This document shows, piece by piece, positions 3,106 to 26,938 of a stretch of 48,800 bases of DNA. The DNA is from a virus. Lineage: Duplodnaviria; Caudoviricetes. Below the pieces are notes generated by a model, which saw only the letters and a program-made list of their open reading frames with translations, was not told where the DNA came from and made no database searches. Position numbers and translations under genes: made by a program. How positions within the stretch are numbered: the stretch's first letter is position 1; every line of letters starts with the position of its first letter. Location of the stretch: positions 1-48,800 of the IMG/VR virus record IMGVR_UViG_3300005573_000129; one strand, 5' to 3'.

Positions 3106-3289
3106 TAAGTCTAATTTTAGGACTTTGTAATTTTATGAGGCATTTGTCTATCCATGTTGGTATATTTGGTTTAATGTAGAATTACAAGATAATGTTCAAG
3201 ATTAGTATTGATATAATTTTTCGATTCATTAAAACATTGGATTAATTATTTATAAGTTCGAGTAGCAAAGCCATTATTGTGGAATAAAG

Positions 3290-3634
3290 ATGTCAATTGA
3301 AGAAACCAATTATCAAGATAATGGAAGGACTTTGACAATTATCAGGATTGGTAAATGTAATGAATGTGGGTATTGTTGTGGATTTGAGAATGGGATTGTA
3401 ACAGAAGGTTCTTGTAGTCATCTTGATAAAAATGGTAAGTGTTTGACATATGATAAAAGATATCTTTATTGTGAAGAACATAAGACAGATCATCTTAATT
3501 GTATAAATTTTCCAATGCATCCGATTAGAAAGCTGAATCCCAAATGCAGGTATAAGTTCATAGAGAAAGAAAGTGGTGCTGAAATAATATCATTAGAATT
3601 TGCTGATGGGGAGTTTTTGACTAAAAATGCCTAA
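3290..3634 (+). CDS. YkgJ-like Cys-cluster (Zn/Fe-chelating) protein
   Basis: CNECGYCC, C.HL...KC..Y, C..FP and C motifs. Confidence 0.65.
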   Translation: MSIEETNYQDNGRTLTIIRIGKCNECGYCCGFENGIVTEGSCSHLDKNGKCLTYDKRYLYCEEHKTDHLNCINFPMHPIRKLNPKCRYKFIEKESGAEIISLEFADGEFLTKNA

Positions 3635-6600
3635 TAATTTTGGTAACATTAAGTTTCAGACACTTGATGGAAGAGAACTTGATGCTAAACTATATTGCCA
3701 TAGTGAAACTGTAAACATTAATGGGACGAATTATTATCTATTAAAATCAAACACTCCTGCTGATGGGTCTGGTGTTTCTCTTTCAGCTTCTACTGGTAGT
3801 GTTGCAAGAGTAGTATGGGGAAAGTTTGTATTTCCATTGTCTGATATTCGTAGCATTCAAAGTGCTACAATCAATGCGATTTATAGAGCATACACTACTG
3901 GCGGAACTGTTAATGCTGAAATAGACATTAAAATTTTGAAATCTGACAATACAGTAAGGACCACCATAGCAACAGGCGTGTCTAAATCTTCAAGCCTTGG
4001 GACTTCTTGGAGCACTCTTACTGGTGCTGATTATTCATTTAGTAGATATGATGTTGTCGACCAGACAGATTATTTAGAAATAGATTACATTGCAAATGTA
4101 ACTTCTGCAAAAATAGGTAAAACTGCATTTTTAAGAATAGACTCTAGTACATTACCAGAAACAGATCAAACAAGAAGCCAAGAATGGAATTTTTTGGGTA
4201 TTGTTAAAAAATATTTAGCCATTAGGCATAGTGTTTGTACCGCTAAAAAATATTTAGCTATTAGGCATAATATTCGTAACGTTGCAAAGCAAAGAATTTC
4301 TTTAAATTATAGTTCATATTATATTGGTTGGGCTTATAGAAAATCTCACATTATCCAACCAAGTAGTGGTGCTGGAACAAACTATCAAGTAAAGATTATA
4401 GTTCATTATGGGTCAGGCACAGACTCTGGGGAAAATGTCTATCTTAATTACCATTGCAGGTCTGACTTTGGCGATATTAGGTTTACAAAATCAGATGGTG
4501 TTACATTCCTAGATTACTGGATGGAAAGCTACACCGCTAGCGATAATGCGGTTTTCTGGGTTGAAATTGCAGACGACTTAAGCACAAATAATCAGACGAT
4601 TTATATTTATTATGGCAATACAAGTGCTACCACAACAAGCAATGGAGCAAGCACATTCCTGTTTTTTGATGACTTTGCAACTAATACGTTGGATAATTAT
4701 ACTGAAACTTATGACTCTGGTGGTTCACCAGCATTTTCATACGATGCTTCAGGTCAGAGAGTCGTGGGTTACACCACCGATGCAAAACAACATCATTTAA
4801 CGCATAATACTTTCACAGTTTCAGACCATAAAATAGGTGTTAAAATAATAAGCGGACAGGATGGAGGGATGTGCTTCAGGTTTGTAGACCAATACAATTT
4901 TTACCTTGTAAATTTCTATGATAGCAGTGACCCATCAACACCTAATTGTATTCGTGTCTGGAGAAGGGCTAGCGGAACATGGACTGAATTAGGCAATTAT
5001 GTAAGTATTTCAAACACAGCTGGGTCTGTTCATCAGCTTTATTTTGGCTTTTACGGGATATACCTTTATGTCTGGTGGGACGGTACCCTAGTAATAGACA
5101 TGCGTTTCCTCGGCACAATGTTTACAAGTGGAAAGTTTGGTCCTAGAATCAGCTCGACTCCTAGCACTAACCCATGTTATCACGATGATTTGAGAGTAAG
5201 TAAGTTTGTTGCCTCTGAACCCAATCATGGAAGTTGGGGAAGCGAAGAAACTCTTAATAAAATTACAAAAACGTTGAAGTTGTACCAAAACATTGTTGTA
5301 AAAGTATACGATAAGATTTCTGGCATATTTTCAGTATTGCAAGGATTACAAACTATCTATAAGAGTATTATTCAGCTGTTTTATATCCTTAATTTTAAAA
5401 GAAAGTCATATTCGATTTTGCATAGTTTAAGGAACAAAAGATATTCTACATTTACAGTAAAAGAAAAAATTCTAAATTCTGTACTTAAGCTGTTTAAACC
5501 AATTTGGAATTTAAGAAATGTGCTGTATGTGCTCAAGTCATTTATTTGGAAATCATACACCAAAACACTAAAACAGTACAAAATAATATTTGGATTAAGG
5601 AATAGAGTTTCAGATTCAATTAGATTAATCTACAATGTGAGGAATTTAATCTCTAAAAAATTTTATTTGATATATAAGCTACTTAACAAAGTATGCGATT
5701 CAGTTAAACCGATCTATTCTATAAGAAATAGAGTCTATGGATCGTACAGATTGCTATACAGTATAATTAACAGGATTTATGATTCTATAAAGTCGGTCTA
5801 TTCTATAAGAAATAGAATTTATAAGTCATATAAATTGCTGTACGGTGTAATTGGTAAGGTACTTGATTACATTAAATTAGCATTTACAATAAGAAATAGA
5901 GTCTATAAAACATCAAAGCTGTTGTACAGCATAATTAACAAGTTGCATTATGCATTAAGCACAAAATGGAACATAAGAAACATACTTCCAAAACGTATAG
6001 TGCAATTCTATTCTTTAAGGAATAAAACACTAAAGCTTTTTAGACTAATTTACAATGTTAGGACAGCAATCTTTGACTTAATTAAAACAGAATATAATAT
6101 TTTACATTCTGTTATTGCCAAAGTATCTACAAAATATGGCATTAATAATTTAGTTAAAAGTGCAATATCTAGTACTTACAATATATTCGGAAAGGCGATA
6201 TTAAGAACAGGAGTACTGTTATACTCCACTCTTAATAAGGTATATTCAAGACGGAGTTTATACTACTATATTAGGAATCTGGTAAGTGATTATGCAAAAT
6301 TACAATATAGCACTCTTAATTCTGTAAAAGATCATCTTACTATGATATGGAAAACACTGAATAAATCAGCATTATTGTTTAAGGCGAACTACAATATCAG
6401 GAACTTAATTAGCATTAGAAAAAGCATATTGTATTCTATTAGGAACTTGGTAAAAATTGCATTCAATGTAAAGTTTTCATTGAGGAACTTGATTTTGAAA
6501 TCTTTTGTTCCTATATATTTTGTATTGCATATAGTATACAATTCAATAATTCAGGCATATTCAATCAGGAATTTAATAATGAATCTAAAAGAATTGAAAT

Positions 6601-7994: not shown

Positions 7995-10900
7995 ATGAAA
8001 GTAGTTAAATTGGAATTTGAAGATGTAGTAAAACTTTGGCATGGGGAAATAATGCCAGAAAAGGATACTGCATATACATTTGGCGATCTTTGTATTGCAT
8101 TGGATGGGGTATTGCTTGATAAGCCAATTGTTGTAGCAATAAATGAAGACAAAGTTTCTCAAATATCTTTAGAAGCACTTGAAGACGATAGCCTTGAATT
8201 ATTGCACAACTTGTGCCATATTATTGAAGAAAATTTAGACCATATACCTCAAATATGCAAATTGCACTTTGACATTGCAAGACATATGATCCAGAGGGGT
8301 AAATCCCACTCTGGAAATGCTTTTTGTGATCGTGTAGTTGAGCTTATAAAAGGTTCATTTGAAGATTATGTAAAAACACTTCCTAATTTAGATGATAAGG
8401 TATTAGCAGATGATCTTCGTATTGTTTATGGTTGGTATTCCACTATAAAAAGTGGGAAACAGCTTTACAAACATATTGGAGAAAAAAGAGAACCTATCAC
8501 TTTAGAATCACTTGAGGATTTAGCAGTTGAGATTGTAAAAGAAATGATAAAAAGAGGATTTAAATTCTCAAAGCCAGAAGATTATAAAACTAAAAGCAGA
8601 GAGCTATGGGAAAAGGTAATTGAGAGGGTTGGTAAAGATAAAATAATATTTGAAGGCTCAAGTTTACCCACTAATGTAACAGAAATTAACGTTGATTATC
8701 TTAAAGGGCTTAATAATGAAGAACTTGAAAAATTGTGGGAATGGCTACATAATAAGTGGAAAGAAGAATTTCCAGATGGTAAGATAAATGAGGATTTCCT
8801 GAATGCAAATATTCTTATCCAGATGGAGAGATTCAATAGAGGGCTTATAGATTATTCTTACAAAGACAAAGATGATCTTGACAGAGAATCAAGGTATTCT
8901 TGGCAAGAATATGGAGCTGTGACTCCTTTGTCTAAAAGAATAACACTTGAAGAGGCAATCAAGATAATACAAGATAATGGGCAAATTGTAATAAAAGGGG
9001 AACCATATGTTGGATATCTTTGTGGTGGAATAGTAAATAGAGGATATGTTGACGATCAAGATATAGATTTGAGGATTCAAGCAGATTATGATCCAAGAAT
9101 TATTAAGGCTTTGAAAGAAATGAAACCAAAGTGGTTTGCAGATAGGCTTCACATATTCTTTGATAAAGAAGGAGGGATTGGTTATTCAGTTCCAGTCTAT
9201 GCTTTTGGGTTTGATTTAGTGCCTAAAAATGAAATAAAGAAGAATTTTGAAGCCACTAATATTGAATACTTTTCGAGTATTACAGTAGGCAAGCCGGTTA
9301 TAGGGCTTAAGCCTAAAAGTGGATTTGGGAAGAATGAATTCTTCGATGTAAAAGAATGCTGGACTAAATGGGGTATTGAACACCCTAACTCTATTGTAGA
9401 AGAGAAAGTTGATGGAAGAAGATTCCAGATTCATATTGATGGCGATAAAGTCAATATGTTTTCAGAAGATACCCAGCAAGACAGAGCAAATCTATTTCCT
9501 GAAATAGTGGCAGAATTGAAATCTCTTGGCGTCAAAGATGCTATTTTGGATGGGGAAATGTTAGCATTTGAACTGCCTCACAATGTCTCTATTAAGAATG
9601 CATCTTCTAAACGGAAACTTGGAGATTTAATACCAAGAGAAGATACAGCAGTCATTACAGCTGGAAATGAGATTGATCCAGAATTTCGAAAGAAGCTTGT
9701 TTTGGTAATTTATGATATGATGTATCTTAATGGCAAAGACCTTACAGAGTTGCCTTATGAAGAGAGAAGAAAAGAATATCTTAACTTAATTAAAGACAAT
9801 TTGAAGTATATAGATGCGGTAAATGGGATTAAAGTAAGCAATATGCGTGAATTCTTTGAAGCAGTAGAGAAGATGAGGCGATTGAATGGCTCTGAAGGCG
9901 TTGTGATCAAAGATATAGAAATGAGATATCCTGTAAAGTTCTCTGGAGAGAATAGAACTGCAGATGCTTGTAAAATTAAGAATCTAAAGAGTATAGATTG
10001 CATTGTCCTTGATGCAATACAAAAGAAGACTCAAGAAGGAAAACCATTGCCTAACTATTTGTATGTGTCTGGAGTTCTTGTAAGCAAGTCTGAAGCAGAT
10101 CAGTTTGATCCAGAATATATCAAAGAGTATAAAGGAAAAACTTACTTGATTCTTGGGAGAACATATTCAACAGATGTGAAATGTGAGATTGGAGATATAA
10201 TTACAGTAATGCCAATCAGAATAAGGTTCTATGAATCTAATGGAAAGAAGAAAGTAACTTGGATGTTTCCATTGTTTAAAGAAAAGAGAGAAGACAAGAA
10301 AGAGCCAGATACTATTACAACTGCAAAAAGGATTGCAGAAGTAAAGACTTCTCCTTTAAGTGAGGATAATGAAATTATCAGAATAGAGTTGCAAACTTGT
10401 AAATATTATAAAGATGAAAATATATGTCCTCTTAAAAGAATCTTTAGAAAGACAAGAGATCAGTTGTCTGAAATAATTGTAGAGAAAGAGCATTTGAAAT
10501 ATCCAGTTAAATGCCCACTTGCACAATTGTATAAATGTAGATATCTTAAGCCGTATTATTATGAGATTTCTCCATTTGCTAAATATGTCATTGAAACAGA
10601 TGGAGAACTTAATTCATTATCATTGCCAAGAGAACTTAAGTTGTATGCACTGTCAAAATATATGGAATGCCCTAAAGGAGAGCATGAGTTTGTAATTGAA
10701 AGCCATATCTTGACATCTGAATACATTCCTAAAGATAAGCACATTCCAGCAAAAGGTTCTCAACATTTAGATTTTAGGTTTAAAGTAGACGGATATCTTG
10801 AAGGTTGGAGTATTGTAGGTGGCTCTGTAGATAATATGGTTACACCAACAACATTAATTGAAAACAAAGCTAAAGGATTTAGGGCAGAGGAGAAGGCACA

Positions 10901-12506
10901 ACAGTCCATAGACTGGTTATTCCCAAATATGAAAGCAGTTGGTAAAAAAGTAGATTCGTTGAAGCCGAATGACTATGTAGATGAAATGTTTGATGTTATA
11001 GTAGGCTCTGGAGAACCAAGAGGCAAAATGTTTGTGATTACACGTGGTAAAATAATATTTGGTGCTCAAAAGCCATATTTCCATGAGTACTTCCTTAAAG
11101 ATGAAGAGTTCTTTAAAGATTGGACTCGTATTGTTTTTAGGGCAATAAATGTTCCAGAGATTGATCCAGAAACTAAAGTAAAAACTGAAAGAGAGGACTT
11201 AATGTGGAGAGTAATGATACCAGAAGATCAGATGCCATATGCAATTAGTGATAGGGCTATGGAAAAAGGATGGAAACCGCCAATAAGCAATCCAGAGCCA
11301 TTTCCTAAAGATTTTGTGTTAAATAATTTCAAAGAACAATACGACAAATGGATTAATTGGAAGAAGACTGGAGAGTTTTCTGCTGGCAGAGTTGTGTTAT
11401 CTGTCCATTCTTATAGAGGACCATTGCATGTCAGAGGGATGTTTGTAAAATCATATTATTTATTCTTGGATGATGGTAAGAAATTAGCGAGATGTTTCAG
11501 GTTAAATGGGAATCCACTCTTTGAAGATGTCTTTGCAGTTGAAATTGGCAGGGTATCAAAGAAACTTATGGATTATGAAGGAGATACAAAGCCAGAATCG
11601 TTTTTCAACCCTACAAAAGAGATTGTTGGCAAAGTAGAGCATATGATAGATACAAAATCTGATATTGTTTCTCAAGTGGAAGATAACATTGAGAACATTA
11701 CTTTCAGTATAAAGTCTGGTGAGTTATCTGGCAAGTGGACTCTTGAGCAAGAAGAGAAAGGAAGCAATGTGTATCTTGTAAATATTGCCAATAAGCTATC
11801 TAAAGAAGGGAAATTTGCATACCAAAAGCATACAATAGTAAATGATGGTTATCACTTTGATTTAAGGATTGATTTAGGAGAACCATATCTAATAGAGTTC
11901 AATATTCCAAAAGATTTGCTTGAGTCTACTAAAGATGAATTCATAGATATTGTAAAGAAAAAGTGCAATGATAAATCTTGGCTAGATATTGAAAAGATTG
12001 AACATAGGAAAGTTGGCAAACTTGATACTATAGTAGAGCCAATTGATTCTGGAACTATTAATGTATTGGAAGAATCTGAAGATTTTATGTCTTTTGAACT
12101 ATATGGGAATAAATTAAGAGGTCTATTTGTAATTAAGAATGACACAGATGGTTGGAAAATTGCAAAGTCCTCAAGACCAAGGGCATTATCTAGATACGGA
12201 GAACCTGATGTAGGTCCTTACAAAGATTTCCCAATAGAAGACAAAAAGACTTGGGATTACTTTAGAGTATACCTATATGATCCAAGAGAGTTTACACATA
12301 ATGAAGATTACAAGAAATACATTGAAATTGAAATGCCAGAAGGAGTGCTTCCTTATATTGGGATTTACCATAGGCTTGGGTCTATAGGTGGAGCAAGAGT
12401 GTCTATGATAGATTTTAAGAAAGATATATGGAGTTATAGGGAAGCGATTAAATGGATAAAGGGTTCAAAATTACACCTTTGGAATGGTGTACAGAAGAGA
12501 GGGTGA
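7995..12506 (+). CDS. multidomain ATP-dependent DNA ligase with NTase-like and LigD 3'-phosphoesterase-like domains
   Basis: Ligase motifs I EEKVDGRR, III ILDGEML, IIIa VIYDMMYLNG, IV SEGVVIK, V CKIK; LCGG...DQDIDL (Pol-beta-type NTase); FVIESH..QHLDFRF and FAYQKH..YHFDLRID (PE); GGTGA RBS. Confidence 0.85.
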   Translation: MKVVKLEFEDVVKLWHGEIMPEKDTAYTFGDLCIALDGVLLDKPIVVAINEDKVSQISLEALEDDSLELLHNLCHIIEENLDHIPQICKLHFDIARHMIQRGKSHSGNAFCDRVVELIKGSFEDYVKTLPNLDDKVLADDLRIVYGWYSTIKSGKQLYKHIGEKREPITLESLEDLAVEIVKEMIKRGFKFSKPEDYKTKSRELWEKVIERVGKDKIIFEGSSLPTNVTEINVDYLKGLNNEELEKLWEWLHNKWKEEFPDGKINEDFLNANILIQMERFNRGLIDYSYKDKDDLDRESRYSWQEYGAVTPLSKRITLEEAIKIIQDNGQIVIKGEPYVGYLCGGIVNRGYVDDQDIDLRIQADYDPRIIKALKEMKPKWFADRLHIFFDKEGGIGYSVPVYAFGFDLVPKNEIKKNFEATNIEYFSSITVGKPVIGLKPKSGFGKNEFFDVKECWTKWGIEHPNSIVEEKVDGRRFQIHIDGDKVNMFSEDTQQDRANLFPEIVAELKSLGVKDAILDGEMLAFELPHNVSIKNASSKRKLGDLIPREDTAVITAGNEIDPEFRKKLVLVIYDMMYLNGKDLTELPYEERRKEYLNLIKDNLKYIDAVNGIKVSNMREFFEAVEKMRRLNGSEGVVIKDIEMRYPVKFSGENRTADACKIKNLKSIDCIVLDAIQKKTQEGKPLPNYLYVSGVLVSKSEADQFDPEYIKEYKGKTYLILGRTYSTDVKCEIGDIITVMPIRIRFYESNGKKKVTWMFPLFKEKREDKKEPDTITTAKRIAEVKTSPLSEDNEIIRIELQTCKYYKDENICPLKRIFRKTRDQLSEIIVEKEHLKYPVKCPLAQLYKCRYLKPYYYEISPFAKYVIETDGELNSLSLPRELKLYALSKYMECPKGEHEFVIESHILTSEYIPKDKHIPAKGSQHLDFRFKVDGYLEGWSIVGGSVDNMVTPTTLIENKAKGFRAEEKAQQSIDWLFPNMKAVGKKVDSLKPNDYVDEMFDVIVGSGEPRGKMFVITRGKIIFGAQKPYFHEYFLKDEEFFKDWTRIVFRAINVPEIDPETKVKTEREDLMWRVMIPEDQMPYAISDRAMEKGWKPPISNPEPFPKDFVLNNFKEQYDKWINWKKTGEFSAGRVVLSVHSYRGPLHVRGMFVKSYYLFLDDGKKLARCFRLNGNPLFEDVFAVEIGRVSKKLMDYEGDTKPESFFNPTKEIVGKVEHMIDTKSDIVSQVEDNIENITFSIKSGELSGKWTLEQEEKGSNVYLVNIANKLSKEGKFAYQKHTIVNDGYHFDLRIDLGEPYLIEFNIPKDLLESTKDEFIDIVKKKCNDKSWLDIEKIEHRKVGKLDTIVEPIDSGTINVLEESEDFMSFELYGNKLRGLFVIKNDTDGWKIAKSSRPRALSRYGEPDVGPYKDFPIEDKKTWDYFRVYLYDPREFTHNEDYKKYIEIEMPEGVLPYIGIYHRLGSIGGARVSMIDFKKDIWSYREAIKWIKGSKLHLWNGVQKRG

Positions 12507-12510
12507 TGGC

Positions 12511-12966
12511 ATGGTAGAAATAGAATTGCCATTGATCATTTCTTCTATTATAAGTACTTCAGCATTAGGAGTATCCATATTGTCATATTTGCATACAAAG
12601 TCCAGAGATTATAATGCAGAATGTCGTGAAATATATGATAGAATAAGTGAATTAGATAAATATACTCATACTGAAATAGTCAAATTAAATGAAAGAGTTA
12701 AAAGTGTAGAACGGTTTGTAGATAGTTGGTGGTCTATGATGGAAAAGGAGATGGCAACTGTATTAAAGCATCCTACAAAACAAGAGTTAGATGATCTTCT
12801 TGATAAATTTGTATCACATTCAATTACTACAAACGAGCTGTTGCAACTTAAACAAATTATTCAATCAGAGCTGAATAATTCAAGAGCTATAAAGGATTAT
12901 GGAAAGACAATAGCATTAACTTTCATAAACGTTTCTATTGATAGGAGATTAAATTGCAATAAATGA
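12511..12966 (+). CDS. membrane-anchored coiled-coil hypothetical protein
   Basis: N-terminal hydrophobic helix LPLIISSIISTSALGVSILSYL; start moved to ATG 12511 after GGGTGA. Confidence 0.55.
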   Translation: MVEIELPLIISSIISTSALGVSILSYLHTKSRDYNAECREIYDRISELDKYTHTEIVKLNERVKSVERFVDSWWSMMEKEMATVLKHPTKQELDDLLDKFVSHSITTNELLQLKQIIQSELNNSRAIKDYGKTIALTFINVSIDRRLNCNK

Positions 12967-13007: not shown

Positions 13008-14111
13008 TTGATGGTAATGAACGAAGATGTTAAGAGTATTTTGCTTGAACTTGAAACTGAAAACGAAGAACTAAAGAAAGCTCTTGAATCTTATAAGCCA
13101 AAGATTTCTGATGAAGTTGGGTTTGGTTATAATTTTGTAATTCTATCAAAGTCGCCACTTAAGATTTCTGGTGTTTTACTATCTGAAGGTGTATGGAAAG
13201 GCATTAAGTACCTTTATGATGAAATGAAGAAAGCATTGCCTAAATTTAAAGGGCTAAAAGGTATGGTATTGCATGGTAAATCAGAAGAGTATAAGGATCG
13301 TGTAATAGGGAAGCTCACTAAAGTAACACCAAATGATATGTTAAAGTCACTTGTATTTGAGGCGATTGTTGATGATCCACAAGCTATTGAAGATATTAAG
13401 AATGGAGTATTTGATGCCGTTTCTTTGAAAATAGAAGCAGGTCAATTAGACACTTCAACTGTACCACCAGAAGGGAGGGATTATACCCCATATGAGTGGT
13501 CTTTGACAAGCACACCTGCTTGTGAAACTTGTTTGATATTTTCTGTTGATGAATTAAGTATTAATGCTAAAGAGGAGTGTGATGAAATGGGAATAAAAGA
13601 CAAAAAAATAGAAGAAAATACTACAGTTGTTTCTTTATCAGAAGAAAAGAAGGTAGAAGCACCTAAAGTTGAAACTAAACAGGTTGAACCAACTAAAGAA
13701 ACACCACCACCGCCACCACCTACAGACGCTCAACCCAAGCCTGTAGAAGAAAAACCTGTTGCTACTGTGCAAACAAAAGTTGAACAAATAACAGTAGGCA
13801 AGGAAGAAGAGAAAGTCCATACAGTCACTCCTACAGACATTAGAATTATAATTGAGACACCAGAGCATAGGTCAGAAGAAAAGAAGGTTGAAGATGTTAA
13901 AGCACAACCACCACCACCACCACAGCAACCTGAAGTTAAGAAGGAAGAACCACAAGCACAAGAGAAACCTGCTGTAGAAGAGAAACCTCTTACTATTGGC
14001 AGAATTAAGAAATATGCTAAAGAGAAGAATATTGACTTGGCTACGATATCAGCAGAGCTTTTGATAAAATCACTTGAAAGGCAACAGCATAATATGCAAG
14101 AAGAGGAGTGA
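13008..14111 (+). CDS. prohead (maturation) protease with Pro/Glu/Lys-rich scaffold-like C-terminus
   Basis: His in VLHG, Ser in DAVSL, EWSLTSTPAC (HK97/Mu-type protease motifs); lies upstream of the capsid gene. Confidence 0.75.
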   Translation: MMVMNEDVKSILLELETENEELKKALESYKPKISDEVGFGYNFVILSKSPLKISGVLLSEGVWKGIKYLYDEMKKALPKFKGLKGMVLHGKSEEYKDRVIGKLTKVTPNDMLKSLVFEAIVDDPQAIEDIKNGVFDAVSLKIEAGQLDTSTVPPEGRDYTPYEWSLTSTPACETCLIFSVDELSINAKEECDEMGIKDKKIEENTTVVSLSEEKKVEAPKVETKQVEPTKETPPPPPPTDAQPKPVEEKPVATVQTKVEQITVGKEEEKVHTVTPTDIRIIIETPEHRSEEKKVEDVKAQPPPPPQQPEVKKEEPQAQEKPAVEEKPLTIGRIKKYAKEKNIDLATISAELLIKSLERQQHNMQEEE

Positions 14112-14379: not shown

Positions 14380-14486
14380 TTTTTCAGGTCTATCGATAAA
14401 TTATTTAATTTTTTTAATTTATTTTTCTTACGTATATAAAAACTTAAATATAATACTTTATGTATTATTGCTTGGAGGAATCCATA

Positions 14487-15536
14487 GTGAAAGACATATT
14501 TGAACTTGCAAATACCACTACAACCGATGTTACTGCGATTACTCCAAAGGTAATCTCCGCTACTATTGAGGAGATTGCTCGTGCAAAGAGAGTATTCGCA
14601 CAATTCTACAAAGAGAATAGGGACTTGATGAATACTGGTGGAACTCAAGTAGAATTTCCGAAGAAGGGTTCTGGTGTTGTAGTCCAGACTGGTTTGAGTG
14701 CTGGAAGCACTCTTGACACTGGGAAGATAACATATGATGCAACTACAATTGCTATACAGAAGTCTGGAATAGGAATAGGGTTTAACGGTGAAGCACTCCG
14801 TCAGGTTAGAAGGGATATAATCAGGGATGCAATTCAGGAAGCTGGTGAAGCTTGGGCTGATTCGAGGGATACTCTTGCACTTGAAGCAATGTTCCCAACG
14901 GTTAATATTGTTGCTTCTGGAGCATCTACAATTACTGCTACTGGCACAATCATAATTGGCATTAAATCAACCATTGGTTCTGTTTCAAGTGTCATAATTG
15001 ACACGAACTCTGCTGTTGTGTTTGGTAGTGCTGGCACTGTTACAGCTTGGTACATTCCAACTACTGCTGGTGCAAGGACTCTATCTGCAGTTGGTGGAAG
15101 TCTAAGTCCGAAGGATATCCTTGCTGGTAGGACTTCGATTGTTTCATATAACTACGATCCAGATGTAATGATAATCAACCCGAAGAGGCTTGCTGACATA
15201 CTATACGATCCTGCTGTGAACTTTGTGCAGTCTTGGGCATATCGTGGTGAAGGACCTGCTGTTAACGGTGAGATTGGGCAGATATGGGGCATGAAGGTTG
15301 TCGTTACAAACAAGTGTCCAATATACGGTGTAATTATGCTTGACAGTGAGAACCTTGGATACAATGTTAAGAGGCTTGAGCTTGAGCTTAAGAAGGATGA
15401 GTACTCTGGCATGAAGACTGATTCGCTATACTTCTGGGGATTTGCTGAAGAGAACTTTGGCGTTGTCAATGACAGGGCTTACGGTGCTGTTGCAGTCAAA
15501 GGCACTTTTGTTCCTGAAGTGAATTCAACTCGATAA
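14487..15536 (+). CDS. major capsid protein (HK97 fold)
   Basis: GGAGG RBS then GTG 14487; ITPKVIS..IEE, VEFPK, PDVMIINP, GEIGQIWGMKVVVT; high-expression codon bias; position in the head module. Confidence 0.85.
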   Translation: MKDIFELANTTTTDVTAITPKVISATIEEIARAKRVFAQFYKENRDLMNTGGTQVEFPKKGSGVVVQTGLSAGSTLDTGKITYDATTIAIQKSGIGIGFNGEALRQVRRDIIRDAIQEAGEAWADSRDTLALEAMFPTVNIVASGASTITATGTIIIGIKSTIGSVSSVIIDTNSAVVFGSAGTVTAWYIPTTAGARTLSAVGGSLSPKDILAGRTSIVSYNYDPDVMIINPKRLADILYDPAVNFVQSWAYRGEGPAVNGEIGQIWGMKVVVTNKCPIYGVIMLDSENLGYNVKRLELELKKDEYSGMKTDSLYFWGFAEENFGVVNDRAYGAVAVKGTFVPEVNSTR

Positions 15537-17265: not shown

Positions 17266-18016
17266 GCTTTTAGAAAATGCTATGAAAGTTGTAAAGCCTT
17301 ACTTGTATCACCAAAATACGATACCTACTGATACATTATCTGTGATTGGGACTATTACGCAAGAATTTTATGCTTTCACAAATTCTTTGAGTTCTTATGC
17401 TTTTAATGTGGTTGAACCACCTTCTGGTAGCATTTCATTTAATTTTTCAAGTGGCACAATTTCTGTAAAGTCCACATTTATTCCAAATGTTGGTTGGAAT
17501 ACTGTTAATATTAATGAAAGGATTGTGTCACGAGATAAATGTACTATTCAAATTATAAGTAATGACTCTATAACGTATGGTGCTACCACTATCCCTTATA
17601 ACATAGAGACAAGTGTGAATGATGTTGTTAGCAACGTAGTAATGTCCCAAAATCCAATTTTTAAAGAGTGGTTGAGATTTGCATATCCTTATGAAGTTGT
17701 TTCAAGAGATTATTTGCCAAGATGTGTTATTGATGTTACTGAAAGGGCAGTAATCAATTATCCATATATCAACTATGATGTTTGGAGAGAAGAGCAAAGC
17801 ATACAGTTCCAAGTGTATTCTTTATATCCTAAAGAATTATTTGAAATTACAAAAGCAATAGAGAAAGCAATTATATCTAATAGAGAAAACATTGCAAATG
17901 AAATTTGTCTTATAGTTCCTTCTGGTACTTCTGGAATTGGTAAAAATATAGATGATATTTTATTCAAGACAATAACATTTAATATTAAGATACTTAACAG
18001 GAATATAACAGGGTGA
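17246..18016 (+). CDS. putative tail terminator protein with an inserted domain
   Basis: C-terminal half YP......LPR..I....IQFQVYS; lies directly upstream of the tail tube gene. Confidence 0.5.
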   Translation: MVLSQDKLLENAMKVVKPYLYHQNTIPTDTLSVIGTITQEFYAFTNSLSSYAFNVVEPPSGSISFNFSSGTISVKSTFIPNVGWNTVNINERIVSRDKCTIQIISNDSITYGATTIPYNIETSVNDVVSNVVMSQNPIFKEWLRFAYPYEVVSRDYLPRCVIDVTERAVINYPYINYDVWREEQSIQFQVYSLYPKELFEITKAIEKAIISNRENIANEICLIVPSGTSGIGKNIDDILFKTITFNIKILNRNITG

Positions 18017-18021
18017 ACTGA

Positions 18022-18969
18022 ATGGCAGGATGTTCTGATTATATCTCAAGAGCTGTAAAGATGGGATACAACTGGGATGGCTCACTTTTAAGTGCAAATA
18101 GTTGTACATTGTCTTGGAATTATCTAAAGTCTTTTAATGTTTCTATTAGAGAAAATATAGACAAAGCCGGTGTAATATCTGGAAGTCGTGATCAGGCAAG
18201 AATAGCAGTTCTTGGTGAAGAAACAGAAGTAGAGTTTGAACATGAGCTAATGTCTCCTTATCCATTGTATTTTGCACTTGGATCAATTAGTCCGAGTCCT
18301 ACACCTCCATTCTCGATATCAGTAGGTTCAACTTTGCCGACTATGACATTTGCAAGATATCTTGAGCCAGTTGAAACTGGAGAACAAAAACTGCTTCGTG
18401 TATGGGGAGCTAAAGTTGATTCTATGGAGTTTAATGTAGAAGCAAATGGTCTTGCTAATATTAGTGCAACTTGTTATGGGAATAGGGCTACTATTGATAC
18501 CTCTGGGACTATAACAGCTTCAATAGATTATACAAAAGACCCAGTATACTTTAATGACTTTACTATAAAAGTAGATACTCAAAGCATTGATGAAATCTCA
18601 AGGATATCATTCACTGTTAATAATAACCTTGAAAGGAAATATGCAATTTCAACTTCTGCTGGATATGGTGCCTATTGTATTCCAGAAGGATTCTTGGAAA
18701 TTGAAGGTAGGCTTGAGCTTGGTGGTAAAGCACTCGGTATGCTTGAGAAGGTACTGAATAGAACTGCTGGGCATACAATTGAGTTGATTATCGCTAAGAC
18801 TCATGGAGGGGAAGTGACTTCAACTATCACATTGCCTAATGTAATGTTCAATGAGTATCCAGAGAAAATAGAAGGAATTGAGCCATATAGTATAGAGATT
18901 CCATTCCAAGCAATACCAAGTTCTTCACAACCAGCTATCAAAATAGTGACTAATACTCTAATACTATAG
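18022..18969 (+). CDS. major tail tube protein
   Basis: 315 aa, beta-rich; GAKVDSMEF, ISFTVNNNLE, EIEG motifs of siphovirus tube proteins; GGTGA RBS. Confidence 0.75.
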   Translation: MAGCSDYISRAVKMGYNWDGSLLSANSCTLSWNYLKSFNVSIRENIDKAGVISGSRDQARIAVLGEETEVEFEHELMSPYPLYFALGSISPSPTPPFSISVGSTLPTMTFARYLEPVETGEQKLLRVWGAKVDSMEFNVEANGLANISATCYGNRATIDTSGTITASIDYTKDPVYFNDFTIKVDTQSIDEISRISFTVNNNLERKYAISTSAGYGAYCIPEGFLEIEGRLELGGKALGMLEKVLNRTAGHTIELIIAKTHGGEVTSTITLPNVMFNEYPEKIEGIEPYSIEIPFQAIPSSSQPAIKIVTNTLIL

Positions 18970-25624: not shown

Positions 25625-26938
25625 ATGTCAGACTCAAGCAAGATACTTGAAGAATTACAAGAGAAAGCTAAACTATTATTATGGTATAAAGATTCTTCTA
25701 TTTTTTTCAAGGATGTATTTGGAAGTGAGCCTTATCCTTATCAAAAGAAAGTATTGGAAGAATTGAAAGACCCAAGCATTCATAGAGTGCTTATAACTGC
25801 TTCTGGAGGATCAGGAAAGACTAAATTAGTAGCCTGTCATGCATTATGGTTGGCAATACCTTTTGCATTGCAAGAAAATCGTTCTGTTAGCATAGTAATC
25901 ATTTCAGGATCACAGAACCAAGCAAGGACTTTGTATGGATACATCAAGGAAGGGATAGAGAATACACCTTTATTGCAAAAGTATGTAGATGGTGAAATTA
26001 CTCAAAGTTTTACTAAATTCAAGAATGGCAGTTCTGTTTCAGCAGTCCCTAATTCACAAAAGGCTATTCAGAGTTTGCATAAAGATGTAGTAATTATAGA
26101 TGAACCTTGTCTTGCTGGGGACTTTGTAATAGATGATGCTAAAAGGATAGTAGTAAAAGACAATTCACTTGATAAGATCATCTTACTTGGAACACCATTT
26201 GTACCTCCTGAAAGCAAAGTGAAATCTACAAAGTTCATTGATATGTATATGGATAAAGAAAAGTTCCCAGAATGGAAGAGATACCATTGGAATGCTATGG
26301 ATTGCCCTAATGTTACAGCTGAACAAATAGAAGAAGCAAAGAGGACTTTGAGTGAGGAAATGTTTTCAATATTCTGGCTTGGAGAACCTTATTTTGTTGG
26401 TGAATCTTTGATTCCTTTTGATCAGCTTAAAGAGGCATCTTTGGATGTGAAGACTCAATATGATCCTAATTATCCTGCAGTTGCTGGCATAGACTGGGGA
26501 TACAAGCATGAGACTTCTCTTACAATAGCACAGAAACGGGATGATATTTGGTACGTAATCTATAATGAAGGATGGAGGCTTACTGAATATGAAGACTTGC
26601 AAGAGAAAGTCTATCATATATGCAAACAGTTCAATGTTGAAGTAATATATGCAGATGCTGAAGCAATTGGTGAGAATCAAAGGCTTGAATCTAAAGGATT
26701 GAGAGTAGTCCCAATACCTTTTGTAAAATATAGGACTCAATTGCAAGCTAATTTGCAGGTGTTGTTTGCTAAAAGAAGAATTAGGATAGATGAAAATATG
26801 ATAAAGCTGAAAGAGCAACTTCGTAAGTATAATTGGGATGTGAAAATTAATGATGATAGAGTAGATAGTCTGATGCTTGCTGTGAATAACATATTTGATG
26901 AGGAAAGTAGTAATATTCCGTTGTTAAGAATATTATGA
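25625..26938 (+). CDS. terL: terminase large subunit
   Basis: PYPYQ Q-motif, Walker A ASGGSGKT, Walker B VVIIDE, LGTP, RNase H GIDWG, YADA, DDRVDSL. Confidence 0.9.
   Translation: MSDSSKILEELQEKAKLLLWYKDSSIFFKDVFGSEPYPYQKKVLEELKDPSIHRVLITASGGSGKTKLVACHALWLAIPFALQENRSVSIVIISGSQNQARTLYGYIKEGIENTPLLQKYVDGEITQSFTKFKNGSSVSAVPNSQKAIQSLHKDVVIIDEPCLAGDFVIDDAKRIVVKDNSLDKIILLGTPFVPPESKVKSTKFIDMYMDKEKFPEWKRYHWNAMDCPNVTAEQIEEAKRTLSEEMFSIFWLGEPYFVGESLIPFDQLKEASLDVKTQYDPNYPAVAGIDWGYKHETSLTIAQKRDDIWYVIYNEGWRLTEYEDLQEKVYHICKQFNVEVIYADAEAIGENQRLESKGLRVVPIPFVKYRTQLQANLQVLFAKRRIRIDENMIKLKEQLRKYNWDVKINDDRVDSLMLAVNNIFDEESSNIPLLRIL

Follow-up and report, generated by a model that had tools for sequence, protein, structure and literature searches.

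P0001, a ligase and phosphoesterase polyprotein beside the head genes of a tailed virus, as candidate capsid-borne DNA repair cargo

Introduction

Bacterial LigD and the stand-alone archaeal phosphoesterases (PEs) offer a PE barrel with a metal triad plus an arginine, and an ATP-dependent ligase with an OB domain (3n9b, 3p43, 3p4h, 5dmp; PMC3082917). These elements recur in P0001, a 1503-amino-acid polyprotein encoded by IMG/VR virus record IMGVR_UViG_3300005573_000129, a linear record that was analysed whole over its 48,800 bases (CheckV completeness about 45%) and is called the window here. P0001 differs from LigD in carrying three PE copies C-terminal to the ligase, in replacing the active-site His by Gln or an unconserved residue and the Tyr by Trp, in having a minimal nucleotidyltransferase (NTase) in place of a POL domain, and in its viral head-module context. 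In the strict sense, it does not belong to the LigD family.

Loci L021-L078 (L062 apart) of the present survey, which we take to be magroviruses, encode relatives of about 850 amino acids ahead of protease and capsid genes, like the magrovirus ligase; these proteins give no NTase match, have lost the PE triad and carry K-type linkers. Philosof et al. (2017; PMC5434244) reported that the structural modules of magroviruses contain a distinct family of ligases, and called its presence in the capsid module unexpected; their passages on the protein name the ligase only and mention neither PE or NTase domains nor a linker motif or a model of packaging.

Polyvalent proteins are predicted to be packaged, cut by a C-terminal assemblin-like peptidase and injected, and in the sections consulted they appear as large multidomain mosaics near virion genes, with recurrent domains of the Pol-beta NTase, 2H and methylase kinds (Iyer et al., 2017; PMC5512222). 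The main text of that paper, as consulted, uses the term 'DNA ligase' zero times and calls archaea poor in such proteins (PMC5512222). P0001 is likewise a multidomain enzyme mosaic linked to virion genes. In contrast to the polyvalent proteins, the protease of the window is a separate gene and P0001 has none of the hub domains (MPTase, ArdC, MuF, ART, SNF2); an embedded XkdF peptidase occurs only in the homologues P0036-P0040.

In phage T4, gp21 cuts head cargo at L/I-X-E and the cargo is then ejected, according to the relevant passages of PMC9026906. A short protease motif is common to the T4 internal proteins, Alt and the capsid protein; P0001 resembles them in this by sequence pattern only, and no sequence homology to them was seen. 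The motif itself differs, the candidate cargo here is a repair polyprotein, and T4 was worked out by experiment whereas P0001 is known from sequence. The virion of African swine fever virus packages a base excision repair set comprising ligase, Pol X and AP endonuclease (PMC12172490, in the part concerned with the virion), so that end-cleaning, filling and sealing enzymes are in the particle and act before replication. The logic is alike, but the comparison is an analogy only: the virus is eukaryotic, its proteins are separate, and AP endonuclease and Pol X stand in place of PE and minimal NTase.

The archaeal virus ANMV-1 encodes NTase, ligase, PE1 and PE2 in one 866-amino-acid chain (AJP62006.1, in KP703175.1), without the helical repeats, Cys segment, PE3 and C-terminal domain of P0001, and the protein is annotated as an ATP-dependent DNA ligase only. 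No publication treating ANMV-1 and ligase together was found, and the consulted portion of PMC11706807 mentions no ligase. Nor was a publication describing the combination in P0001 found in a search of mostly open literature, where supplements (e.g. that of Iyer et al., 2017) could list the architecture. P0001 is a real, well-conserved viral polyprotein and probably a new form of capsid-borne enzyme cargo, distinctive in the free-standing protease whose motif is readable in the polyprotein, in its likely archaeal setting and in a PE site with fixed non-canonical residues.

Domain architecture of P0001

P0001 was modelled in two parts, residues 1-865 (mean pLDDT 80) and 792-1503 (mean pLDDT 81). 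In these models a leader of poor model quality (1-51) is followed by the three helical repeats, the NTase, the ligase with its OB domain, the segment with four Cys, three beta domains and a final domain of about 100 residues:

7995..12506, + strand: 1503-amino-acid polyprotein gene (P0001), an open reading frame (ORF) call with GGTGA upstream of the ATG
8166..8336, + strand: helical repeat H1, His-rich (model; hhalign)
8346..8642, + strand: helical repeat H2, with a weak likeness to the T4 endonuclease V family that is a lead only
8676..8906, + strand: helical repeat H3 (model; hhalign)
8928..8933, + strand: linker mark LS, residues 312-313, a predicted protease site
8934..9230, + strand: minimal Pol-beta-type NTase (G344, D356, D358; fold match)
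9276..9986, + strand: ATP-dependent DNA ligase adenylation domain, motifs I-V intact
9987..10349, + strand: ligase OB domain with motif VI, residues 665-785
10377..10574, + strand: four-Cys segment ending in YYY, of low model confidence
10668..11189, + strand: PE1, LigD-PE-like, with H904, H924, D926 and R928 conserved, His replaced by Gln970, Tyr by Trp974, and invariant K967 and E1031
11376..11789, + strand: PE2, PE-like, metal ligands gone, conserved in the family
11802..12170, + strand: PE3, LigD PE fold, with H1279, H1287, D1289 and R1291 conserved and the phosphate-binding His not conserved
12198..12503, + strand: C-terminal alpha/beta domain of about 100 residues, family unassigned, occurring only as the last domain of relatives that carry PE

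The GGTGA is presumably an archaeal-type ribosome site. An earlier note, made from the letters of this DNA, had described the ORF as a string of helical modules, an NTase signature, a ligase core, a Cys-rich segment and PE-like domains. The ORF and every motif that it listed are present (LCGG at nt 9018, DQDIDL at nt 9054, KVDG at nt 9405); the OB domain and the C-terminal domain were both missing from its list.

The ligase core is complete. Conservation was mapped pairwise, a procedure that misplaces a few residues (e.g. Q970 28/32), and K471, D473, E521, D574, E634, K660 and K662 are each conserved in all 45 mapped sequences, query included. Pfam DNA_ligase_A_M matches residues 465-654 (E 8e-25), and motif VI (FPLFKEKREDK, residue 758) lies in the OB domain. 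The model of ligase plus OB domain (residues 397-785) matches DNA ligases at Z 20-24, best exemplified by T4 ligase (Z 23.5, root mean square deviation (rmsd) 3.0, 282 aligned over residues 435-782), and RNA ligases at Z 10 or less, as expected for the DNA enzyme first proposed. An RNA ligase identity, raised by a Pfam RNA_ligase match (E 3.6e-7), was rejected on the OB domain and the low RNA ligase scores. Relatives carry intein-like inserts next to three ligase motifs (I, V and VI), within the NTase and at three positions of PE1; the inserts beside the ligase motifs and in PE1 imply that these active sites are probably working. Residues and modelled fold together suggest an enzyme that seals 3'-OH/5'-P nicks.

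The Pol-beta-type signature of the NTase is borne out by G344, D356 and D358, each conserved in 45/45 mapped sequences, and by a modest match of the model (residues 317-405) to the minimal NTase HI0073 (1no5; Z 6.1, rmsd 3.2, 85/102 aligned). Pfam Polbeta is matched by 2 of the 13 aligned members (best E 0.009), profile searches of the PDB that started from the alignments of the NTase and of H2 yielded chance matches only, and the ESM Atlas scores for the NTase were all below 0.9, with one cluster in which 12% of members carry NTP_transf_2. A third catalytic carboxylate is usual in minimal (MNT) Pol-beta nucleotidyltransferases, where P0001 has His386; this position is His in 40/45 sequences, and the neighbouring D390 is nearly invariant.

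The three helical modules proved to be copies of a single repeat (hhalign 95% and E 2e-8 for H1 with H3, about 68% for the remaining two pairs). H2 resembles Pyr_excise weakly (E 0.1, 13 bits against a cut-off of 23; 2/10 members); a likeness to T4 endonuclease V appeared neither among the PDB profile matches nor in the top 50 fold matches, and ESM Atlas gave no match for residues 58-305. The Cys-rich segment, with C802, C811, C840 and C848 invariant in 34/34 rows, is probably metal-binding. As a separate observation, this segment ends in an invariant YYY, and the scaffold tails of the L001-L020 proteases carry YYYGYPY repeats, which are absent from the protease-scaffold tail of the window itself. 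An ASCH-like domain in relatives, an impression gained by eye, found no Pfam support and was dropped.

The PE domains and their altered site

The PE3 model matches 3p4h at Z 17.2 (rmsd 2.0, 116/118 aligned). PE1 has profile matches to 3p43 (E 0.0014) and to 3n9b, 2lj6, 3p4h and 5dmp (E about 0.05), and PE2 aligns to PE3 (96.8%, E 2.7e-10), so that PE1 and PE2 probably share the PE fold on profile evidence. The proposed fit to the eight-stranded LigD PE barrel holds by model for PE3 and by profile for the other two. PE1 and PE3 do carry H-H-D-R, with the middle copy degenerate, as first read; in PE1, H924, D926 and R928 are conserved in 31/31 mapped sequences in each of two sets, and K967 and E1031 are fixed.

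H-H-D-R makes up four of the six LigD active-site residues, and no PE copy has the full LigD site. According to the passages on mutagenesis, CkoPE requires every one of His9, His15, Asp17, Arg19 and His51 and depends in part on Tyr55, and H51A retains <1% activity (PMC3082917). By sequence alignment rather than superposed coordinates, the His51 position is Gln in PE1 in all 62 sequences with the motif found, and the Tyr55 position is Trp in 30/30; PE3 has a variable residue and Trp at the two positions, and five distant protease-fused proteins have Glu at that of His51. Because PE1 has Gln at an essential His, 3'-phosphatase healing is an extrapolation and LigD chemistry is unproven; the LigD-type healing proposed in the earlier note is not supported as stated. 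The 3'-phosphatase step of LigD also requires Arg, Asp and Glu of an N-peptide. Just before PE1 lies a conserved Y-M-E-x-P that may supply the Glu; no Arg-Asp pair was seen, without alignment to a full-length PE.

PE2, which lacks the ligands, is conserved from ANMV-1 to XkdF-fused phage proteins and is therefore under selection. The claim that PE is triplicated stands as to three copies; the copies are not the decay of one gene, the inactive PE2 being widely conserved. PE1 plus PE2 is the old unit, and PE3 is clade-specific (window clade and L019). The reported absence of Ku and of a PrimPol-type POL domain agrees with the scans, firmly for POL only (no match in P0001 with Pfam or NCBIfam), since Ku gave no match in a contig that is only about 45% complete.

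A probable protease mark shared by polyprotein, protease and capsid protein

Two neighbouring genes enter the comparison of the linkers:

13008..14111, + strand: prohead protease with scaffold-like tail; invariant His89, Ser139 and Ser165
14460..15536, + strand: major capsid protein, whose leader ends ..FELA..

The seven counted junctions of P0001 carry LS at residues 312, 788, 824, 1268 and 1398 and FS at 426 and 1128, all of them predicted protease sites; junctions vary in length and fall mostly in low-confidence stretches of the models. Across 64 dereplicated sequences (junctions outside L010, L013 and L015, with that between Cys segment and PE1 left out of the count), L[SEA] occurs in 192/244 junction segments against a shuffled mean of 87 (maximum 105) and 56 in random windows, while fifteen intra-domain control loops give 50/495. 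LS alone (127 against 29) is the sole dipeptide present at all seven junctions. The enrichment was repeated on held-out data, with three windows unchanged and 33 of 42 newly fetched proteins (9 near-duplicates removed): LS was found in 42/79 segments against 13.5 shuffled (maximum 24) and 9/172 control loops, and L[SEA] in 60/79 against 37 shuffled and 39/172 control loops.

The same mark appears in the protease and the capsid protein. The protease domain of the window, in whose family DUF2213 was found in 5/13 members (best E 6e-4), is bounded by LS on both sides (..ILSK.., ..DELS..); its terminal Leu is invariant (13/13), mostly as E-E/A/Q-L-S, and in all 16 rows compared the capsid leader terminates in EL[A/G/S/P] or ENLS. 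The mark changes together with the protease type. Junctions of L010, L013 and L015 have K[SAD] in 14/18 cases and L[SEA] in 2/18, and K-A, K-S, K-Q and similar stand at the protease ends and in the capsid leaders of L013, L015, L083 and the distant loci compared; linkers of the XkdF-fused proteins are likewise K-type by eye. Such a joint Leu/Lys switch would be expected if cargo linkers track protease specificity, as they do with gp21 and L/I-X-E in T4 (PMC9026906). The linker motif would be a shared protease mark, a pattern that fits cutting or targeting alike, and since linkers share it with protease and capsid protein, the chain is likely cut inside the capsid.

In L021-L078, 99 small ORFs between a portal-like gene and the ligase start W-x-x-[I/V/L]-[L/I/V/M]-K, a count that has no chance control; these starts resemble capsid-targeting leaders ending in a K-type motif.

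Gene neighbourhood of the relatives

A full-length search returned 39 homologues. Linkage was counted over 22 distinct close loci (L001-L017, L020, L079-L081, L083), with L018, L019 and L021-L078 kept out as distant and L082 as a duplicate of L004; L084-L086 were dropped as weak matches to the ligase core only, L084 and L085 being cellular ligases in host gene context. Three of the 22 loci are fused like the window, 18 are split into ligase and PE genes and one has the ligase only, so the single-chain fusion is dispensable. A prohead protease lies within 10 kb downstream in 18/22 loci, 15 of them window-type and 3 S78-type (L013 and L015 assigned by Pfam, L083 by likeness), and is adjacent or within two genes in 12/22, in keeping with the proposed linkage to head genes. 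Of the four loci without a protease, three are on contigs that stop about 4 kb downstream or sooner, and L006 lacks one over 10 kb. The placement of the gene just before the prohead protease is right as to nearness, but one ORF intervenes in the window:

12484..12966, + strand: 160-amino-acid ORF separating polyprotein from protease, its N-terminus hydrophobic, without a homologue in the fetched loci

The ANMV-1 homologue directly follows a gene read as portal by eye and annotated MutT-like. This gene (L087:1913-3193; KP703175.1, AJP62005.1), annotated 'MutT-like phage hydrolase', is portal-like by eye and position. Five of the 39 homologues (P0036-P0040) end in an XkdF prohead protease, and four of these five carry a DNA methylase and/or 2H domain; DNA methylases thus occur as cargo in relatives. 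Among 50,697 phage records, 3 match P0001, one of them beyond the ligase core, and no cultured member was found.

Bins in which relatives occur are those of Thermoprotei, Archaeoglobales, Aenigmatarchaeota and Woesearchaeota, and the capsid protein of the nearest relative, L079, is 67% identical to that of the window virus. The host is likely archaeal, though unproven because bins may just include viral contigs.

Proposed role and alternatives

Packaging of P0001 together with its cutting is probable, judging from motif and linkage. The whole model, in which P0001 is a protease-cut capsid cargo that repairs incoming DNA on entry, stands about an even chance of being right. The gene would be expressed late, alongside the head genes to which it is linked, and its product, as one chain or in the two-gene version, would co-assemble with the scaffold into the prohead. 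The His/Ser prohead protease would then cleave it, probably between L and S, into ligase plus OB, NTase and PE units, a step proposed because the motif and its switch with protease type are seen. Following the precedent of T4 Alt and internal proteins, the domains would be kept in the head and ejected with the genome. The ligase would seal 3'-OH/5'-P nicks in the incoming DNA, and PE1, perhaps with PE3, would bind metal and clear some 3' block, by a chemistry likely unlike that of LigD because Gln and Trp replace His and Tyr. PE2 would serve as a non-catalytic DNA-binding partner. In the weakest step, the NTase would fill a one-base gap with a nucleotide or else modify some target in the host. 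The likely selective pressure comes from host nucleases and from heat damage, both met before viral gene expression. Genome circularisation, offered in the earlier note as another use, is a matter on which the evidence here is neutral.

Several points weigh against this model. The motif is only a dipeptide, the first junction windows were drawn after it had been noticed, and only the 33-protein repeat was held out, in which L[SEA] also turned up in the control loops. Relatives in the motif counts are not independent; the K-type group of L010, L013 and L015 is probably one clade, and L010, whose protease is off the contig, was grouped by likeness. In P0001, two of the seven junctions have FS instead of LS, one marked site (residue 824) falls within the Cys segment, and no mark recurs consistently between H2 and H3. 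Between kit and protease stand 4-8 other genes in 6/15 loci, and L006 lacks a nearby protease. As to the enzymes, the NTase fold match is weak, every PE copy is without the LigD phosphate-binding His whose loss leaves so little activity, the magrovirus-like relatives lack the PE metal ligands (by eye), and an N-terminal MBL hydrolase in 18/39 homologues hints at nucleotide or RNA targets too.

Motif and linkage speak to packaging and cutting, not to ejection, and P0001 might therefore be packaged and cut yet act during assembly or in the head, sealing nicks in packaged or stored DNA. Some relatives come from bins of thermophilic archaea (Thermoprotei, Archaeoglobales), in which DNA would break frequently. 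This reading is nevertheless unlikely: the MBL hydrolases, 2H domains and DNA methylases of relatives are obviously useful only in the host cytoplasm, and the supply of ATP inside a sealed head is doubtful.

The MBL domains, which have a fold in the RNase Z/PhnP/Apyc1 neighbourhood, and the 2H domains in 3/5 distant XkdF-fused proteins could also belong to a packaged set of counter-defence tools, the ligase among them, whose main targets would be RNA (tRNA) ends or nucleotide signals; the minimal NTase and the departure of the PE site from the DNA-specific LigD form suit such targets. P0001 itself, however, has neither MBL nor 2H, and the OB domain, motif VI and the structural match to DNA ligases (Z 23) over RNA ligases make an RNA or nucleotide role similarly improbable. 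A DNA substrate is favoured because of these fold scores and because DNA methylases are among the co-cargo.

That the PE-fold repeats are now structural inner-core or targeting domains, leaving the ligase as sole enzyme, has slightly poorer prospects. Conservation of PE2 across distant families despite lost metal ligands would fit, as would a G-x-Q..HEY strand motif outside the LigD site that persists in the triad-less magrovirus-like proteins; the fully conserved H924, D926 and R928 of PE1, the fixed K967 and Q970, and the inteins targeting PE1 argue for a working site. Least probable is an unpackaged, late-expressed ligase complex for concatemers or packaging intermediates with an incidental linker motif, for which gene position alone and the two-letter length of the motif could be cited, but against which stand its replicated enrichment over shuffles and control loops, its L-to-K switch together with protease type, and the direct fusions to the protease.

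Repair of incoming DNA by packaged, cut P0001 leads to a broader and more doubtful proposal, advanced tentatively, that archaeal and bacterial head-tail viruses share an old capsid-loaded kit to heal, fill and seal, with linkers re-tuned between Leu and Lys as protease specificity shifts. The Lys/Gln/Trp site of PE1 would then clean ends by a new chemistry, acting on 3'-blocked breaks beyond the reach of the ligase alone, such as those made by heat or by enzymes of the PabI type, which are described in the part consulted as base-excision restriction enzymes (PMC4615327). The kit would amount to a virion-borne repair defence against host nucleases, acting before expression.

Other features of the window and related loci

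The record also encodes head, tail and terminase genes (major capsid protein at 14460, terminase at 25625), an ERCC4 nuclease and DNA methylases. Portal and terminal repeats were looked for in the 48,800 bases and not found, which reflects the incompleteness of the record. The terminase genes (window:25064-26938) are placed after the tail genes, not ahead of the head genes. A 1345-amino-acid protein (window:3627-7664) with DUF2341 and long basic low-complexity repeats of about 15-residue units is likely a fibre. A 281-amino-acid ORF (window:33680-34525) without Pfam, PHROG or NCBIfam match might, as an impression only, be a divergent sliding clamp.

In 7/22 close loci, and not in the window, a gene of about 110 amino acids of the DUF2153 family (Pfam E 2e-8 in L001) stands beside the ligase/PE gene (L001:12999-13319, L003:14559-14894, L004:4279-4602, L005:9448-9813, L006:9084-9413, L007:2990-3340, L012:2-286); DUF2153 may be a viral head-module protein. 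L003 has two major-capsid-like genes (8054-9115 and 17484-18554) on opposite strands around the kit, and L001 a capsid gene (3163-4248) upstream of it. Archaeal LonB-like protease genes occur in the head region of L002 (1-2145) and L005 (1295-3508, right after the portal gene). The S78 proteases of L018 (15405-16562) and L062 (8164-9300) have an apparent C-terminal Pol-beta NTase motif by eye, as if the NTase had moved from cargo to protease. P0006 begins with a Cys/His domain (residues 1-90) that is HIT-like by eye, without a Pfam match at E 0.01, and may be another swappable cargo.

Implications

The locus offers a mechanism for the ligase in the magrovirus capsid module, together with exact predictions of cut bonds, virion fragments and key PE residues. 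Counter-defence before expression has so far been shown mainly for phage methylases and ADP-ribosyltransferases and for the repair set of African swine fever virus; if the model is true, tailed viruses supply the host cell with DNA repair enzymes ahead of all gene expression. New enzymology would lie in the PE site with its altered residues and in the ligase, which is likely heat-stable, and the Leu/Lys motif switch could help to predict hidden capsid cargo in uncultured viruses.

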